Below are positions 55,986-64,000 of a DNA stretch of 64,000 bases, piece after piece. Position numbers and translations under genes: made by a program. The number at the start of each line of letters is the position of its first letter. Within the stretch, counting starts at the first letter, position 1. A model generated the notes under the pieces. The model made no database searches. It had not been told where the DNA came from and worked only from the letters and a program-made list of their open reading frames with translations. The stretch is taken from NCBI RefSeq assembly GCF_013122565.1, contig NZ_CP053258.1; one strand, given 5' to 3'. The DNA comes from Escherichia coli. GTDB taxonomy: Bacteria; Pseudomonadota; Gammaproteobacteria; Enterobacterales; Enterobacteriaceae.

Positions 55986-56000
55986 TTGCAGGAGCTGCCT

Positions 56001-58481
56001 ATGTTGAGAATGACCCCACTTGCATCAGCAATCGTAGCGTTATTGCTCGGCATTGAAGCTTATGCAGCTGAAGAAACCTTTGATACCCATTTTATGATAG
56101 GTGGAATGAAAGACCAGCAGGTTGCAAATATTCGTCTTGATGATAATCAACCCTTGCCGGGGCAGTATGACATCGATATTTATGTCAATAAACAATGGCG
56201 CGGGAAATATGAGATCATTGTTAAAGACAACCCGCAAGAAACATGTTTATCAAGGGAAATTATCAAGCGGTTAGGCATTAACACCGATAACTTCGCCAGT
56301 GGAAAGCAATGTTTAACATTTGAGCAACTTGTTCAGGGCGGGAGTTATACCTGGGATATCGGAGTTTTTCGTCTCGATTTCAGTGTCCCGCAGGCCTGGG
56401 TGGAAGAACTGGAAAGTGGCTATGTTCCACCGGAAAACTGGGAGCGGGGTATTAATGCGTTTTATACCTCTTATTATGTGAGTCAGTATTACAGTGACTA
56501 TAAAGCGTCGGGTAATAGTAAGAGTACATATGTACGTTTTAACAGCGGGTTAAATTTACTGGGGTGGCAACTGCATTCTGATGCCAGTTTCAGTAAAACA
56601 AATAACAATCCAGGGGTGTGGAAAAGCAATACCCTGTATCTGGAACGTGGATTTGCCCAACTTCTCGGCACGCTTCGCGTGGGTGATATGTACACATCAA
56701 GCGATATTTTTGATTCTGTTCGCTTCAGCGGTGTGCGGTTGTTTCGTGATATGCAGATGTTGCCTAACTCGAAACAAAATTTTACGCCACGGGTGCAGGG
56801 GATTGCTCAGAGTAACGCGCTGGTAACTATTGAACAGAATGGTTTTGTGGTTTATCAGAAAGAGGTTCCTCCTGGCCCGTTTGCGATTACAGATTTGCAG
56901 TTGGCCGGTGGTGGAGCAGATCTTGATGTCAGCGTGAAAGAGGCGGACGGCTCGGTTACCACCTATCTGGTGCCTTATGCAGCGGTGCCAAATATGCTGC
57001 AACCTGGCGTATCGAAATATGATTTTGCGGCGGGTCGTAGCCATATTGAAGGGGCAAGCAAACAAAGTGATTTTATCCAGGTGGGTTATCAGTATGGTTT
57101 TAATAATTTATTGACGCTGTATGGTGGCTCGATGGTCGCGAATAATTACTACGCGTTCACTTTGGGGACTGGCTGGAATACACGCATTGGTGCCATTTCC
57201 GTCGATGCCACGAAGTCGCATAGTAAACAAGACAACGGCGATGTGTTTGACGGGCAAAGTTATCAAATTGCTTACAACAAATTTGTGAGCCAAACGTCGA
57301 CACGTTTTGGTCTGGCGGCCTGGCGTTATTCGTCGCGTGATTACCGGACATTTAATGATCACGTTTGGGCAAACAATAAAGATAATTATCGCCGTGATGA
57401 AAACGATATCTATGACATTGCCGATTATTACCAGAACGATTTTGGCCGTAAAAATAGCTTTTCTGCCAATATGAGCCAGTCATTGCCAGAAGGCTGGGGT
57501 TCTGTGTCGTTAAGTACGTTATGGCGAGATTACTGGGGACGTAGCGGCAGCAGTAAGGATTATCAGTTGAGTTATTCCAACAACCTGCGACGGATAAGCT
57601 ATACCCTCTCGGCAAGCCAGGCTTATGACGAGAATCATCATGAAGAGAAACGATTTAATATTTTTATATCGATTCCCTTTGATTGGGGTGATGACGTTAC
57701 GACGCCTCGTCGGCAAATATATATGTCTAACTCAACGACGTTTGATGATCAAGGTTTTGCCTCAAATAATACGGGATTATCAGGAACCGTTGGAAGCCGG
57801 GATCAGTTTAACTATGGGGTCAACCTGAGTTATCAGCATCAGGGAAATGAAACGACAGCTGGAGCTAATTTGACCTGGAATGCGCCGGTTGCGACAGTGA
57901 ATGGCAGTTATAGTCAGTCGAGTACTTATCGACAGGCTGGAGCCAGGGTTTCAGGGGGCATTGTCGCCTGGTCGGGTGGCGTTAATCTGGCGAACCGTCT
58001 TTCCGAAACGTTTGCTGTGATGAATGCACCTGGCATTAAAGATGCTTATGTCAATGGGCAAAAATATCGCACAACAAACCGTAATGGAGTGGTGGTATAC
58101 GACGGAATGACACCTTATCGGGAAAATCACCTGATGCTGGATGTGTCGCAAAGCGATAGCGAAGCAGAATTACGTGGCAACCGGAAAATTGCCGCCCCTT
58201 ATCGCGGCGCGGTTGTACTGGTTAATTTTGATACCGATCAGCGCAAGCCATGGTTTATAAAAGCGTTAAGAGCAGATGGGCAACCATTAACGTTTGGTTA
58301 TGAAGTCAATGATATCCATGGTCATAATATTGGCGTTGTCGGCCAGGGAAGTCAGTTATTTATTCGCACCAATGAAGTACCGCCATCGGTTAATGTGGCA
58401 ATTGATAAGCAACAAGGACTTTCATGCACAATCACCTTCGGTAAAGAGATTGATGAAAGTAGAAATTATATCTGTCGGTGA
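56001..58481 (+). CDS. yehB: outer-membrane fimbrial usher YehB, 826 aa
   Basis: Start ATG 56001 (MLRMTPLASAIVALLLGIEAYA); usher-family length and beta-rich sequence. Confidence 0.85.
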   Translation: MLRMTPLASAIVALLLGIEAYAAEETFDTHFMIGGMKDQQVANIRLDDNQPLPGQYDIDIYVNKQWRGKYEIIVKDNPQETCLSREIIKRLGINTDNFASGKQCLTFEQLVQGGSYTWDIGVFRLDFSVPQAWVEELESGYVPPENWERGINAFYTSYYVSQYYSDYKASGNSKSTYVRFNSGLNLLGWQLHSDASFSKTNNNPGVWKSNTLYLERGFAQLLGTLRVGDMYTSSDIFDSVRFSGVRLFRDMQMLPNSKQNFTPRVQGIAQSNALVTIEQNGFVVYQKEVPPGPFAITDLQLAGGGADLDVSVKEADGSVTTYLVPYAAVPNMLQPGVSKYDFAAGRSHIEGASKQSDFIQVGYQYGFNNLLTLYGGSMVANNYYAFTLGTGWNTRIGAISVDATKSHSKQDNGDVFDGQSYQIAYNKFVSQTSTRFGLAAWRYSSRDYRTFNDHVWANNKDNYRRDENDIYDIADYYQNDFGRKNSFSANMSQSLPEGWGSVSLSTLWRDYWGRSGSSKDYQLSYSNNLRRISYTLSASQAYDENHHEEKRFNIFISIPFDWGDDVTTPRRQIYMSNSTTFDDQGFASNNTGLSGTVGSRDQFNYGVNLSYQHQGNETTAGANLTWNAPVATVNGSYSQSSTYRQAGARVSGGIVAWSGGVNLANRLSETFAVMNAPGIKDAYVNGQKYRTTNRNGVVVYDGMTPYRENHLMLDVSQSDSEAELRGNRKIAAPYRGAVVLVNFDTDQRKPWFIKALRADGQPLTFGYEVNDIHGHNIGVVGQGSQLFIRTNEVPPSVNVAIDKQQGLSCTITFGKEIDESRNYICR

Positions 58482-58491
58482 GAGGTGGAAT

Positions 58492-59526
58492 ATGATGTTC
58501 AGAAATGGAATGTTACTAATATTTATTTTATGGGCTAATTTTACCTGGGCTGGATGTCGTACCACTGCATCATTAAATATTACTGATAGTATTAATGTGG
58601 GGGAGATTTTAGCGAATGAGGTTTCCTTTAGTAAAAATGTCGTGTTTACTGGGATATCTTGTGATACGAGCACGGATAAAATAGTTTATAAAAATATCCA
58701 AAGTGATTGGGTTGAAGTTGGGCCTTTTGGTAATGGCGAAAAATTAAAGGTTAAAATAGATTCTTTAGGTAAAAACAGTGAGACGATTGGGAAATCCAGC
58801 AATGCGCAGGCAGAATTACCCTATGTGGTTAAAATTGCCAGAGGTACACTTGATTTTACTGGAGAAAGAAAACCAACCTGGTTTCTTTCAGATACTGTGA
58901 TTGCAAATATTGGCGGTGAGTCATCTACATCTATCGACTTTTGGTTGGGAATTTGTAAGACATTGAAGATTAACTGGTGTGTAAGTTATCTCACCAGTAA
59001 ACTGGCGGGGGATACATTTACGCTTGGGTTAAGTATTTCCTATTATCCTAAAAATACGACCTGTAAGCCTGAAAACACAATAATAAAAGTAGATGATATT
59101 GCCTTGTCCCAGCTCAGAAGTCAGGGAAAGATTACGGCGAACAGTAAGGAAGGAATAATTTCGTTGAAATGTGATAATCTTTTCGGCGACAAAAACCAAG
59201 CATCGAGGAATATGGTCGTATATCTTTCCAGCAGTGACTTAGTTACAGGAAGCAATACAATTTTGCGTGGCAACATAGATAATGGTGTAGGATTTGTGTT
59301 GGATCTAAAAGAACCACCAAAAGGAACTGAAGCTGCCATCAAAATTTCTGCTAGCGGCAATCAGGGCGCGGCGACATCATTATGGAAAACAGATAAACCA
59401 GGGGCTTCTTTAAATAGCAATATTATTAATATACCAGTTATGGCCAGTTACTACGTCTACGATACAAACAAAGTTAAATCTGGCGCACTGGAGGCAACCG
59501 CATTAATCAACGTGAAATACGACTAA
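58492..59526 (+). CDS. yehA: fimbrial adhesin-like protein YehA, 344 aa
   Basis: Start ATG 58492 with GAGG SD; signal peptide MMFRNGMLLIFILWANFTWA; longer overlapping ORF in track rejected. Confidence 0.8.
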   Translation: MMFRNGMLLIFILWANFTWAGCRTTASLNITDSINVGEILANEVSFSKNVVFTGISCDTSTDKIVYKNIQSDWVEVGPFGNGEKLKVKIDSLGKNSETIGKSSNAQAELPYVVKIARGTLDFTGERKPTWFLSDTVIANIGGESSTSIDFWLGICKTLKINWCVSYLTSKLAGDTFTLGLSISYYPKNTTCKPENTIIKVDDIALSQLRSQGKITANSKEGIISLKCDNLFGDKNQASRNMVVYLSSSDLVTGSNTILRGNIDNGVGFVLDLKEPPKGTEAAIKISASGNQGAATSLWKTDKPGASLNSNIINIPVMASYYVYDTNKVKSGALEATALINVKYD

Positions 59527-59582
59527 TAACAAGCAAGACGAGCAAGTGGCTAATAATAAAAAATAACAAGGTGTCTGCATTT

Positions 59583-59609
59583 CCCCCTCATGATGAGGGG
59601 GCTTTTTTT
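59583..59609 (+). terminator. intrinsic terminator after yehA (CCCCCTCAT/ATGAGGGGG + T7)
   Basis: Inverted repeat and U-tract read directly; overlaps the rcnB stop codon on the opposite strand. Confidence 0.6.
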
Positions 59610-59946
59610 AGCGATGATAAAAAATCTCACCGTCGTAGGCTTTAATGATTTTACCGTCGGTGTCGCTGATCAACACGTACGCGCCACCCATATAGGTCCA
59701 GTGCGTCCCGGCATCAGGCGCGGGCAGGTTACGTAACTGCCACTGCTTAATGTTGTACTCATCGGTGCGGTACATCTCTGGGACGGTATCGCCTGGTTTG
59801 AAATGCTTAAAGTCAGCAATGAAACTGCTTAACTCATACTTGGAAATTCCCGAGGTATTGGTCGAACCCGCGGTGGCTGGTGCGGCCCAGGCGGCACTGG
59901 TAACCAGCAAAAGCGCACCCAGCAACATCTTATTTTTAATGGTCAT
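59608..59946 (-). CDS. rcnB: periplasmic Ni/Co homeostasis protein RcnB (YohN), 112 aa
   Basis: Start ATG 59946..59944 (MTIKNKMLLGALLLVTSAAWA signal peptide); ORF-track upstream extension rejected. Confidence 0.85.
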   Translation of the reverse strand: MTIKNKMLLGALLLVTSAAWAAPATAGSTNTSGISKYELSSFIADFKHFKPGDTVPEMYRTDEYNIKQWQLRNLPAPDAGTHWTYMGGAYVLISDTDGKIIKAYDGEIFYHR

Positions 59947-60164
59947 AAACTCTCCACTTTGGGGATCTGTAATATCAGTCGCATATCTTTCCTGCCATAC
60001 AATATAACTGACAAGCGATATTTTGTTAGTGATCCCATGATTTCGTAAAAAGTGTAAATGAAAGGATGCCCTAAAAGCATCCTTAGCGAGCAGAGAGTCA
60101 GCGGAAATAGCTGATTTAAGAATCATCCTGGGCTGAAGATAACATGCAAGCCTAAAGGATTGAG

Positions 60165-60989
60165 TTATCGCATTATGCCCATGAAGCCATGTACGCCCAT
60201 ATACACACCAACTAAGCCAATCAACAGACTGGAAAAATAGGGGGCGCGTTTAGCGAGAGTGTTAAATCCGCTCCAGCGTTTTGCGACCTGCTGAACGCTG
60301 ATTGCTGCGCCAACGCCTACGGTGACAAGCGTTAACGCCAGGCCAATGCTAAAACTTACGACCAGTGTTGCGCCCAGTGTCAGGGCTTTCAACTGAATGC
60401 AAATCAACAGCACGGTAATTGCTGCCGGGCAGGGGATAAGGCCACCGGTTAAGCCAAATAACAAAATTTGCCAGTTGGTGACCTCTCTACCATCAAAGCG
60501 TCGTTTAATGTCATTAGCATGGGCTCGTGCATGAGCATCCTGATACTCGCCATGTTCGTGATGGTGATGATGCCCATGGTCGTGGTGATCTTCGTGATCG
60601 TGGTGATGATGTTCATGATCATGCTCGTGCATATTCTCCAGCCAGTTGCGTTCGCCGCGCCAGGTACGCCAGAACATCCAGAACGCGGTGCCAATAATGA
60701 TCACTGCAGAAATCAACTGGAGCCACGGTTCTGCAGATTGAGCAGTAAAGCGTTTGCTGATCACCATCCCGCCAAAGGCAATCAACCAGACCACCGCGGT
60801 ATGCGAAATGGTTGCTGCCAGTCCGAGCATCACCGCCTGTTTAATGGTGCCTTTGATGGCGATGATAAACGCCGCCATCATCGTTTTTGAGTGCCCTGGT
60901 TCCAGGCCATGAAGCGCACCAAGTAAGATGGCGCTGGGGATGAAGAACCAGGCGTTTCCTTGCTGAAGAAGAGTTGTAAATTCGGTCAT
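60165..60989 (-). CDS. rcnA: nickel/cobalt efflux protein RcnA, 274 aa
   Basis: Membrane protein with His-rich loop HEHDHEHHHHDHEDHHDHGHHHHHEHGE seen. Confidence 0.9.
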   Translation of the reverse strand: MTEFTTLLQQGNAWFFIPSAILLGALHGLEPGHSKTMMAAFIIAIKGTIKQAVMLGLAATISHTAVVWLIAFGGMVISKRFTAQSAEPWLQLISAVIIIGTAFWMFWRTWRGERNWLENMHEHDHEHHHHDHEDHHDHGHHHHHEHGEYQDAHARAHANDIKRRFDGREVTNWQILLFGLTGGLIPCPAAITVLLICIQLKALTLGATLVVSFSIGLALTLVTVGVGAAISVQQVAKRWSGFNTLAKRAPYFSSLLIGLVGVYMGVHGFMGIMR

Positions 60990-61026
60990 GATAATAATTC
61001 TTAGTATTAATTCGGCAATCTGATTC

Positions 61027-61061
61027 TACTCCCCCCCAGTACCTGATACTACCCCCCAGTA
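61027..61061. promoter_or_regulatory. two tandem RcnR operator sites (TACT-C7-AGTA and TACT-AC6-AGTA) in the rcnA-rcnR divergent intergenic region
   Basis: Sequence TACTCCCCCCCAGTA (61027..61041) and TACTACCCCCCAGTA (61047..61061) read directly; matches the published TACT-G6-N-AGTA RcnR site on the opposite strand. Confidence 0.65.
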
Positions 61062-61109
61062 GATTAATAGTGCTATGATTTTTCATGTTCTTGTTAACCA
61101 GGTGTTGCC

Positions 61110-61382
61110 ATGTCTCATACAATCCGTGATAAACAGAAACTGAAAGCGCGTGCCAGTAAGATTCAGGGCCAGGTCGTGGCGCTCAAGAAAATGCTCGACG
61201 AACCGCATGAATGCGCTGCAGTTTTACAACAGATTGCTGCTATCCGTGGCGCGGTAAACGGTCTGATGCGGGAAGTGATTAAAGGTCATCTGACGGAACA
61301 CATCGTTCACCAGGGGGATGAGCTAAAACGTGAAGAAGATCTGGATGTCGTTCTGAAGGTGCTGGATTCTTATATCAAATAA
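61110..61382 (+). CDS. rcnR: Ni/Co-responsive transcriptional repressor RcnR, 90 aa
   Basis: 90-aa CsoR/RcnR-family ORF ([21 protein letters not shown]...). Confidence 0.9.
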
Positions 61383-61477
61383 TTTATTAACGCGATTGTA
61401 AAACTGCCGTTTTTCCTCGTTTACAACGCGTGCGCTGGACATTACCATCCTCCTCTGCGATTTATCATCGCAACCAA

Positions 61478-61598
61478 ACGACTCGGGGTGCCCTTCTGCG
61501 TGAAGGCTGAGAAATACCCGTATCACCTGATCTGGATAATGCCAGCGTAGGGAAGTCACGGACCACCAGGTCATTGCTTCTTCACGTTATGGCAGGAG
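61478..61598 (+). promoter_or_regulatory. TPP riboswitch (thi-box) in the thiM leader
   Basis: Contains GGGGTGCCCTTCTGCGTGAAGGCTGAGAAATACCCGTATCACCTGATCTGGATAATGCCAGCGTAGGGAA, the classic E. coli thiM aptamer, followed by the SD-sequestering platform ahead of ATG 61605. Confidence 0.85.
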
Positions 61599-61604
61599 CA
61601 AACT

Positions 61605-62393
61605 ATGCAAGTCGACCTGCTGAGTTCCGCGCAATCTGCGCACACGTTACACCTTTTTCACCAACATTCCCCTCTTGTGCACTGCATGACCAACGATGTG
61701 GTGCAAACCTTTACTGCCAATACCTTGCTGGCGCTCGGTGCATCGCCAGCGATGGTTATCGAAACCGAAGAGGCCAGTCAGTTTGCGGCTATTGCTAGTG
61801 CCTTGCTGATTAACGTTGGCACGCTGACGCAGCCACGCGCACAGTCGATGTGTGCCGCCGTTGAGCAAGCAAAAAGCTCTCAAACACCCTGGACGCTTGA
61901 TCCAGTAGCGGTGGGTGCACTCGATTATCGCCGCCGTTTTTGTCTGGAACTTCTGTCTCATAAGCCAACCGCCATACGTGGTAATGCTTCGGAAATCATG
62001 GCATTAGCTGGCATTGCTAATGGCGGACGGGGAGTGGATACCACTGACGCCGCAGCTAACGCGATACCCGCTGCACAAACACTGGCACGGGAAACTGGCG
62101 CAATCGTCGTGGTCACTGGCGAGATGGATTATGTTACCGATGGACATCGTATCATTGGTATTCACGGTGGCGATCCGTTAATGACCAAAGTGGTAGGAAC
62201 TGGCTGTGCATTATCGGCGGTTGTCGCTGCCTGCTGTGCGTTACCAGGCGATACGCTGGAAAATGTCGCATCTGCCTGTCACTGGATGAAACAAGCCGGA
62301 GAACGCGCAGTCGTCAGAAGCGAGGGGCCAGGCAGTTTTGTTCCACATTTCCTTGATGCGCTCTGGCAATTGACGCAGGAGGTGCAGGCATGA
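61605..62393 (+). CDS. thiM: hydroxyethylthiazole kinase, 262 aa
   Basis: ThiM-family sequence; stop overlaps thiD start (ATGA). Confidence 0.9.
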
Positions 62394-63190
62394 AACGAAT
62401 TAACGCTCTGACGATTGCCGGTACTGATCCGAGTGGTGGTGCGGGGATTCAGGCCGATCTTAAAACCTTCTCGGCACTTGGCGCTTATGGTTGCTCAGTT
62501 ATTACTGCACTGGTGGCGCAAAATACCCGTGGCGTACAGTCGGTGTATCGCATTGAGCCTGATTTTGTCGCCGCCCAGCTCGATTCGGTGTTCAGCGATG
62601 TGCGAATCGACACCACTAAAATCGGTATGTTGGCGGAAACCGATATTGTTGAAGCGGTGGCAGAACGGTTGCAACGTTATCAGATCCAAAACGTGGTACT
62701 CGACACCGTTATGCTGGCAAAAAGCGGCGACCCGCTGCTTTCACCTTCGGCGGTTGCTACGCTGCGCAGTCGATTATTGCCACAGGTTTCATTAATAACG
62801 CCAAACTTGCCCGAAGCTGCTGCCTTGCTCGACGCGCCACACGCGCGCAACGAACAGGAAATGCTGGAACAAGGGCGATCGCTGTTGGCGATGGGCTGTG
62901 GCGCAGTGCTAATGAAAGGTGGTCATCTGGATGATGAACAAAGCCCGGACTGGCTGTTTACTCGTGAGGGAGAACAACGATTTACTGCACCGCGCATTAT
63001 GACCAAAAACACCCACGGCACTGGTTGTACGCTCTCTGCGGCGTTGGCTGCACTACGCCCGCGCCATACAAACTGGGCTGACACCGTACAGGAGGCAAAA
63101 AGCTGGCTTTCATCGGCGTTAGCCCAGGCCGACACGCTGGAAGTTGGTCACGGTATTGGTCCGGTTCACCACTTCCACGCCTGGTGGTGA
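62390..63190 (+). CDS. thiD: hydroxymethylpyrimidine / phosphomethylpyrimidine kinase, 266 aa
   Basis: Ribokinase-like motifs [16 protein letters not shown] and anion hole GTGC seen. Confidence 0.9.
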
Positions 63191-63245
63191 GCACCGTACT
63201 ATAGCTGCTTTGGTTATTGTCAGTCTTTGGCGCTGACATTCAGGG

Positions 63246-64000
63246 ATGAAACCAATGCAGCTAAGAATTACCAGTCGAAAAAAACTCACCGCTCTATTAT
63301 GCGCTCTTGGGCTAATTTCCATCGTTGCAATTTATCCGCGTCAGACGGTGAATTTTTTCTATTCGACAGCAGTTCAGATTACAGACTACATCCACTTCTA
63401 CGGTTATCGCCCGGTTAAATCTTTCGCTATTCGTATTCCTGCCAGTTACACCATTCACGGAATAGATGTTTCGCGCTGGCAGGAGCGGATCGACTGGCAG
63501 CGGGTGGCAAAAATGCGCGATAACGGTATCCGCTTACAATTTACCTTTATCAAGGCGACGGAAGGCGAAAAGCTGGTGGACCCCTATTTTTCGCGTAACT
63601 GGCAACTAAGCCGCGAAAATGGCCTGCTGCGCGGGGCGTATCATTATTTCTCCCCGTCGGTATCCGCTTCAGTTCAGGCGCGATTATTTCTGCAAACGGT
63701 GGATTTCTCACAAGGCGATTTACCTGCCGTGCTGGATGTAGAAGAACGGGGAAAATTATCGGCAAAAGAATTACGCAAGCGGGTAAGTCAGTGGCTAAAA
63801 ATGGTCGAAAAAAGTACGGGAAAAAAGCCGATTATTTACTCAGGAGCCGTTTTTTATCACACCAATCTGGCGGGCTATTTCAATGAATATCCGTGGTGGG
63901 TGGCTCACTACTATCAACGTCGTCCGGACAATGACGGCATGGCCTGGCGCTTCTGGCAGCATTCCGACCGTGGACAGGTAGATGGCATCAATGGTCCGGT
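63246..64000 (+). CDS. yegX: GH25 (lysozyme-like) family protein, N-terminal part; continues past window end
   Basis: Open frame from ATG 63246 (or 63255) to the window edge; TM/signal segment then GH25-like region (IDVSRWQ...FTFIKATEG...GAYHYF). Not in ORF track because it has no stop in the window. Confidence 0.6.
   Translation, partial: MKPMQLRITSRKKLTALLCALGLISIVAIYPRQTVNFFYSTAVQITDYIHFYGYRPVKSFAIRIPASYTIHGIDVSRWQERIDWQRVAKMRDNGIRLQFTFIKATEGEKLVDPYFSRNWQLSRENGLLRGAYHYFSPSVSASVQARLFLQTVDFSQGDLPAVLDVEERGKLSAKELRKRVSQWLKMVEKSTGKKPIIYSGAVFYHTNLAGYFNEYPWWVAHYYQRRPDNDGMAWRFWQHSDRGQVDGINGP

Follow-up and report, generated by a model that had tools for sequence, protein, structure and literature searches.

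[quoted passage not shown]

The stretch of Escherichia coli DNA analysed here, 64,000 nucleotides long and hereafter called the window, carries rcnA together with the divergent gene rcnR and the downstream gene rcnB (Table 1). The 274-aa product of the first gene is RcnA. It matches the NicO family model PF03824 with 236 bits over residues 13-273 (cut-off 27.7, E 6e-70), and the NCBIfam model NF007454 with 560 bits over residues 1-274 (cut-off 195), so that the family match is full-length and above the curated cut-offs. Nickel and cobalt efflux by the window protein is assumed from its identity to the characterised E. coli protein. In the intergenic region between rcnR and rcnA, two exact matches to TACT-G6-N-AGTA were found, where 0 are expected by chance; this motif is the operator of RcnR (PMC7055735). 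The window thus contains the rcnR-rcnA-rcnB locus with two RcnR operators that marks the family. Among the E. coli loci fetched for comparison, rcnR was annotated in every one, and rcnB was annotated in fetched loci too. Two open reading frames of the plus strand that run over the histidine tract (60468-60890, 140 aa and rich in Val and Met; 60527-60697, 56 aa) were discarded as genes; they reflect antisense read-through of CAY and GAY codons.

Table 1. Coordinates of the features described at the rcnA locus of the window
Feature	Position	Strand	Basis
rcnA CDS, 274 aa, NicO-family Ni/Co efflux permease	60165..60989	minus	ORF, Pfam PF03824, NCBIfam NF007454
His/Asp/Glu tract HEHDHEHHHHDHEDHHDHGHHHHHEHGE, residues 121-148, length-variable segment	60546..60629	minus	ORF translation, codons, aligned alleles
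Whole hydrophilic loop, aa 108-173 (66 aa)	60471..60668	minus	Kyte-Doolittle scan and charge count
rcnR, Ni/Co-responsive repressor, 90 aa, divergent from rcnA	61110..61382	plus	Pfam PF02583, 3.5e-21
rcnB, periplasmic accessory protein, 112 aa, downstream of rcnA	59608..59946	minus	Pfam PF11776, 7e-19
RcnR operator TACT-G6-N-AGTA, site 1	61027..61041	minus	exact pattern match
RcnR operator TACT-G6-N-AGTA, site 2	61047..61061	minus	exact pattern match

A megablast search with the window gene found rcnA annotated in 5,365 of 5,426 complete E. coli genomes, and no match in the other 61; one rcnA-bearing location in this set is a plasmid and not a chromosome. E. coli RcnA, also called YohM, exports nickel and cobalt and has a His-rich loop at its centre (Rodrigue et al. 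2005, as cited in PMC5183578 and PMC7055735). The window shares with it the gene, the context of rcnR, two operators and rcnB, the length of 274 aa and a tract with 17 histidines, and its protein sequence is identical to a very common allele of public assemblies. It differs in DNA only: 12 to 19 substitutions separate it from each of eight fetched copies that encode the identical protein, and these must be synonymous, since the encoded proteins are the same. The best identity of rcnA to any complete RefSeq E. coli genome was 98.8%, and that of the 8 kb from 56000 to 64000 was 98.5%, with the pigeon strains PT62 and LP5-1. A 60-mer looked for by exact match in the GTDB species-representative genomes gave 0 hits. 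The window is therefore like E. coli, but of a lineage missing from the complete genomes that were searched.

An earlier note on this DNA had pointed to a histidine-rich tract in RcnA between 60530 and 60640, encoded by a short repeat of CAC, CAT and GAT codons and prone to length variation by slippage. The tract HEHDHEHHHHDHEDHHDHGHHHHHEHGE is present exactly as described, and lies within that span (60546-60629). Histidine accounts for 17 of its 28 residues, compared to 6 of the 246 residues in the rest of RcnA (binomial P for at least 17, about 6e-21). The codons are CAT (9), CAC (8), GAT (3), GAA (3), GAG (2), GAC (1), GGG (1) and GGC (1); the description as a CAC/CAT/GAT repeat was therefore roughly right, but it left out the Glu and Gly codons. 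Tandem Repeats Finder reported only weak periods of 9, 18 and 21 bp, with 68 to 78% matches and scores of 35 to 62, and no perfect run exceeded 2.67 units for CAT or 2.0 units for CATCAC. As DNA, the tract of the window is a cryptic, interrupted repeat. A variable-number tandem repeat (VNTR) in the strict sense, with at least three perfect short units head to tail, is found in other alleles and not in this one.

The tract forms the core of the loop, large and hydrophilic, that links hydrophobic segments three and four of RcnA. This loop is flanked by hydrophobic stretches at about residues 89-107 and 175-197, has Arg/Lys clusters at both ends, and contains 19 His over its full extent (aa 108-173), as expected for the central His-rich loop of the RcnA family. 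It agrees with the published description of the E. coli RcnA loop, '67 AA, 17 histidines', which is predicted to be cytoplasmic (PMC11247825). A cytoplasmic location is predicted here too, on the grounds of the hydropathy scan, the positive-inside pattern and the prediction of that one paper. A sequence search of the PDB found no structure of the NicO family, the only matches being His-tag or His-tail artefacts. The tract attracts spurious matches, among them His-tagged chains of the PDB and the His-rich tail of the CbiX cobaltochelatase, and it needs to be masked in homology searches with RcnA.

Variation in loop length between strains, anticipated in the earlier note, was then evident at several levels. 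In an evenly spaced sample of the megablast ranking, comprising 59 full-length rcnA matches in complete E. coli genomes, 50 (about 85%) had the 825 bp of the window gene, in alleles 97 to 99% identical to it. The other nine measured 804, 824, 837, 846, 849 (three times), 852 and 858 bp. Besides 274 aa, the RcnA length classes of complete genomes included 267, 278, 279, 281 to 283, 285, 287 and 289 aa; among O157-type alleles, one genome has an annotated rcnA of 864 bp (287 aa) and a second genome one of 870 bp (289 aa). When ten fetched rcnA loci were aligned, every in-frame difference fell between WLENM and YQDAH, that is, in the His tract, and in every fully sequenced coding allele but one pseudogene the length difference was a multiple of 3 bp. 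With this many rcnA lengths, and with all in-frame indels of the aligned alleles lying in the tract, it is ruled out that the loop is equally long in every strain. The pseudogene (L009, NZ_CM160040.1, strain Eco_70239) is an 824-bp rcnA with a frameshift near codon 36, outside the repeat.

The abundance of the alleles was gauged by systematic sampling of BLAST rankings and by counts of records in bands of identity; the figures are not those of a full census. A 204-bp query centred on the loop matched 5,363 records, 4,685 of them at 95-99% identity, with 123 more in the 90-95% band and 555 in the 80-90% band. From the effect of gaps on identity, we estimate that about an eighth of the genomes have a tract differing by more than a few codons. 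With the loop-centred query of a 282-aa allele, 88 genomes matched the full 228 bp, corresponding to a 36-aa tract, and 73 genomes spanned 219 bp, which would give, if in frame, a 33-aa tract and a 279-aa protein.

At the protein level, 134 Escherichia and Shigella RcnA sequences were compared (15 from the 90%-identity cluster of the window protein, and 119 further matches). They contained 48 distinct tracts of 15 to 54 aa. The His fraction was 0.57 +/- 0.04 regardless of length (range 0.50-0.65 over the 48 variants), length and His count were correlated with r = 0.96, and the remaining residues were almost all Asp, Glu and Gly. Shortened tracts of the window type, 15 to 17 aa long, were rare, each being found on 1 to 25 contigs. 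In one 270-aa E. coli RcnA (P0006), AHARAHAN is reduced to AHAN, a 4-aa deletion just downstream of the tract (about 60513-60536 in the window); the short AHA repeat at that place can lose a unit too.

How repeat units are gained and lost could be read from individual alleles. One of them (L007) has two tandem copies of CATCATCACGATCACGAA, compared to one in the common allele, another tract (L006) contains (CACGAG)4, and a third (L008) an expanded GAT/CAT run; the insertions look like duplications of adjacent codon units. The clearest case was that of O157:H7, where GACCAC is perfectly repeated in the rcnA alleles, in n = 5-8 units that are translated as (Asp-His)n. Three O157:H7 loci, with n = 7 (L001), 6 (L002) and 5 (L003), show 0 differences over 1,416 flanking bp, and a fourth (L019) has n = 8. 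An exact match to the n = 7 form was found in 64 of 242 O157-type genomes, and a systematic sample of 60 rows from the O157-type genomes gave n = 6 in 32, n = 7 in 16 and n = 8 in 6. Strains 493/89 (n = 7) and LSU61 (n = 5) have an extra 12-bp segment encoding HDHE. A second allele family, of the form YGHD...(DH)3-5, shows a copy-number pattern like that of O157:H7.

The copy-number pattern of O157:H7 is characteristic of replication slippage acting on a hexanucleotide microsatellite. Copy-number polymorphism between identical flanks is found at the rcnA locus of E. coli in the O157:H7 alleles; the window-type allele, for which rare shortened tracts of 15-17 aa were seen, is the stable modal form with little sign of ongoing slippage. 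The claim that the tract is prone to slippage accordingly holds for alleles with a pure repeat, such as those of O157:H7, but not for the window allele itself, whose tract is interrupted and of stable modal length. Since the window-type tract, which has no pure run, keeps its length in about 85% of the sampled genomes, instability depends on the purity of the repeat.

Length variation of the rcnA repeat is already known, and strains of Salmonella and Klebsiella are typed by it. STTR5, a 6-bp CACGAC VNTR inside yohM/rcnA of Salmonella enterica (PMC1781188), is one of the five standard loci for multilocus VNTR analysis (MLVA) of S. Typhimurium, with a median of 10 units and a mid-range of 8 to 14; single-unit changes occur within 50 generations in vitro, and it was suggested that extreme STTR5 lengths might impair YohM (PMC5183578). 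STTR5 lies in the orthologous gene, at the same site between the membrane halves, and changes in frame by single units; its CACGAC unit is the GACCAC of O157:H7 in another register, encoding Asp-His. It is unlike the window allele in that Salmonella typically has 8 to 14 perfect units, whereas the window allele is interrupted, with at most two perfect units and a modal, stable length. MLVA locus 27 of K. pneumoniae is a CATGGT repeat of 0 to 19 units within rcnA (PMC3948817), likewise an in-frame VNTR of 6-bp units in this gene; going by the published unit only, CAT GGT read in frame would encode His-Gly and not His-Asp. In the cable bacteria, the RcnA loop is expanded to 100-123 aa with 33-53 His, is fixed in the clade, and has been discussed as an adaptation (PMC11247825). 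This is a length-variable, His-rich loop of the same family, but it represents a clade-fixed expansion and not a polymorphism within a species. The O157:H7 rcnA repeat is a direct extension of the known Salmonella and Klebsiella VNTRs. No description of it was found in the open-access literature searched, and such an absence is no proof of novelty. The E. coli MLVA locus CVN014, which has 2 to 11 units within ST131 (PMC3407997, where neither gene nor primers are given), was considered as a possible rcnA repeat; the one ST131 RcnA sequence retrieved (P0008) has an interrupted tract of the window type, however, and the candidate was dropped without any claim.

We consider it highly probable that the segment is a His/Asp/Glu loop of RcnA, likely involved in nickel and cobalt handling, whose length changes by slippage, depending on repeat purity, under selection for composition. 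The tract is encoded by short and similar codon units (CAY, GAY and GAR). Because the units are short and similar, whole codons would be added or lost by replication slippage and unequal pairing of 6- to 18-bp units, and alleles of different loop length therefore coexist in E. coli. Frameshifting changes in the tract were not seen, and selection would act on its composition rather than on its exact sequence. Interrupted tracts like that of the window would remain stable over long periods, and true VNTR behaviour would be seen where an allele has gained a perfect run of a hexanucleotide, for example (GACCAC)n.

The length differences could instead be, for the most part, a few old indels, inherited vertically or moved by homologous recombination, in which case the tract, at least that of the window type, would not be hypermutable today. 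This would fit with the 28-aa length in about 85% of the sampled genomes, where rcnA is 97 to 99% identical to that of the window, and with the absence from the window allele of any perfect 6-bp run of more than two units. The allele classes have, moreover, distinct flanking SNPs, the O157 type showing 29 differences in the 3' part compared to 2 to 10 in the others. Against old events stand n = 5-8 within the O157:H7 clone between identical flanks and the similar variation of the YGHD...(DH)3-5 family; the rare window-type tracts shortened to 15-17 aa (1 to 25 contigs each) and the mutation of Salmonella STTR5 in vitro (PMC5183578) also argue against them. We regard this explanation as possible, but rather doubtful. 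That the variation could be an assembly or sequencing artefact of a low-complexity region is barely credible. Repeats are indeed error-prone in some technologies, and one allele has a frameshift, but this frameshift is near codon 36, far from the tract (L009). The variants come from finished genomes, they differ by multiples of 3 bp in coding alleles, with the exception of one pseudogene, and each has been assembled independently tens to hundreds of times (for instance, n = 7 in 64 genomes and the 36-aa loop in 88); a PCR-based method, MLVA, sees the same polymorphism in Salmonella and Klebsiella.

A different objection concerns function and not length: the tract might be a flexible linker that RcnA could do without and that has no particular task with metals, its His richness being a tolerated by-product of repeat expansion. 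Tract lengths of 15 to 54 aa are tolerated in Escherichia, and in relatives the loop measures anywhere from about 20 aa to over 200 aa or gives way to a folded insert, as a linker would allow. Against this, none of the 48 variants has a His fraction outside 0.50-0.65, and their residues are almost exclusively His, Asp, Glu and Gly; loops of unrelated sequence in distant relatives are rich in His as well; no indel disrupts the reading frame; and a His-rich loop in a nickel and cobalt exporter fits known metal-binding chemistry (PMC11247825). A linker of this kind is, in our view, improbable.

We retain a loop with a likely metal role as the preferred reading. In this reading, the His/Asp/Glu loop of RcnA, a Ni(II)/Co(II) efflux permease that RcnR represses and RcnB assists, would bind or hand over nickel and cobalt on the cytoplasmic side. 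Composition and literature make such binding or hand-over the most likely role of the loop. His-rich cytoplasmic loops of CDF (ZnT/MTP/CzcD) and ZIP transporters are likewise thought to bind or sense the substrate metal. These are low-complexity, His-rich segments between transmembrane helices of metal transporters as well, but the protein families are unrelated to RcnA; the sole echo at the sequence level was a weak, sub-threshold ZIP Pfam match on the His-rich run of one RcnA relative (P0146). The His loop of RcnA has been thought to chelate or export nickel, its role as exporter or chelator being unsettled (PMC11247825).

A search of 1.84 billion representative proteins yielded 356 RcnA relatives at E <= 1e-30. 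In the relatives inspected, the loop at the position of the tract was usually His-rich, the shortest having about 20 aa (P0167) and the longest more than 200 aa (P0146). Many relatives have a conserved insert of about 100 aa exactly at this position, with the motifs DTGHG...PEPH...HxGHxH; they include P0135, P0137, P0138, P0143, P0145, P0146, P0150, P0151, P0158, P0168 and P0178. The insert matched no Pfam family. AlphaFold2 modelled it as an all-beta sandwich with a mean pLDDT of 90, and a Foldseek comparison of this model with the PDB gave no match at E <= 0.001, only generic Ig-like sandwiches; the best resemblance, a weak one, was to the copper-resistance protein CrdA of H. pylori (TM 0.66). 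The insert may be a folded module for metal binding, taking the place of the His tract or adding to it.

It is conceivable, though we give the idea little chance, that loop length serves as a heritable and reversible 'rheostat' of nickel and cobalt buffering or efflux. In lineages with perfect (Asp-His)n runs, such as O157:H7 and Salmonella, rcnA would then be a contingency-type locus that adjusts metal homeostasis to hosts or environments, and the folded beta-sandwich insert that other bacteria have at this position would solve the same problem in another way. Beyond confirmation, the importance of the finding is small: a prediction made from the sequence alone was right, and its validity is now bounded, pure runs being unstable and interrupted ones not. 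Within O157:H7, the length of rcnA, with 5 to 8 GACCAC units, is an easy in silico typing marker.
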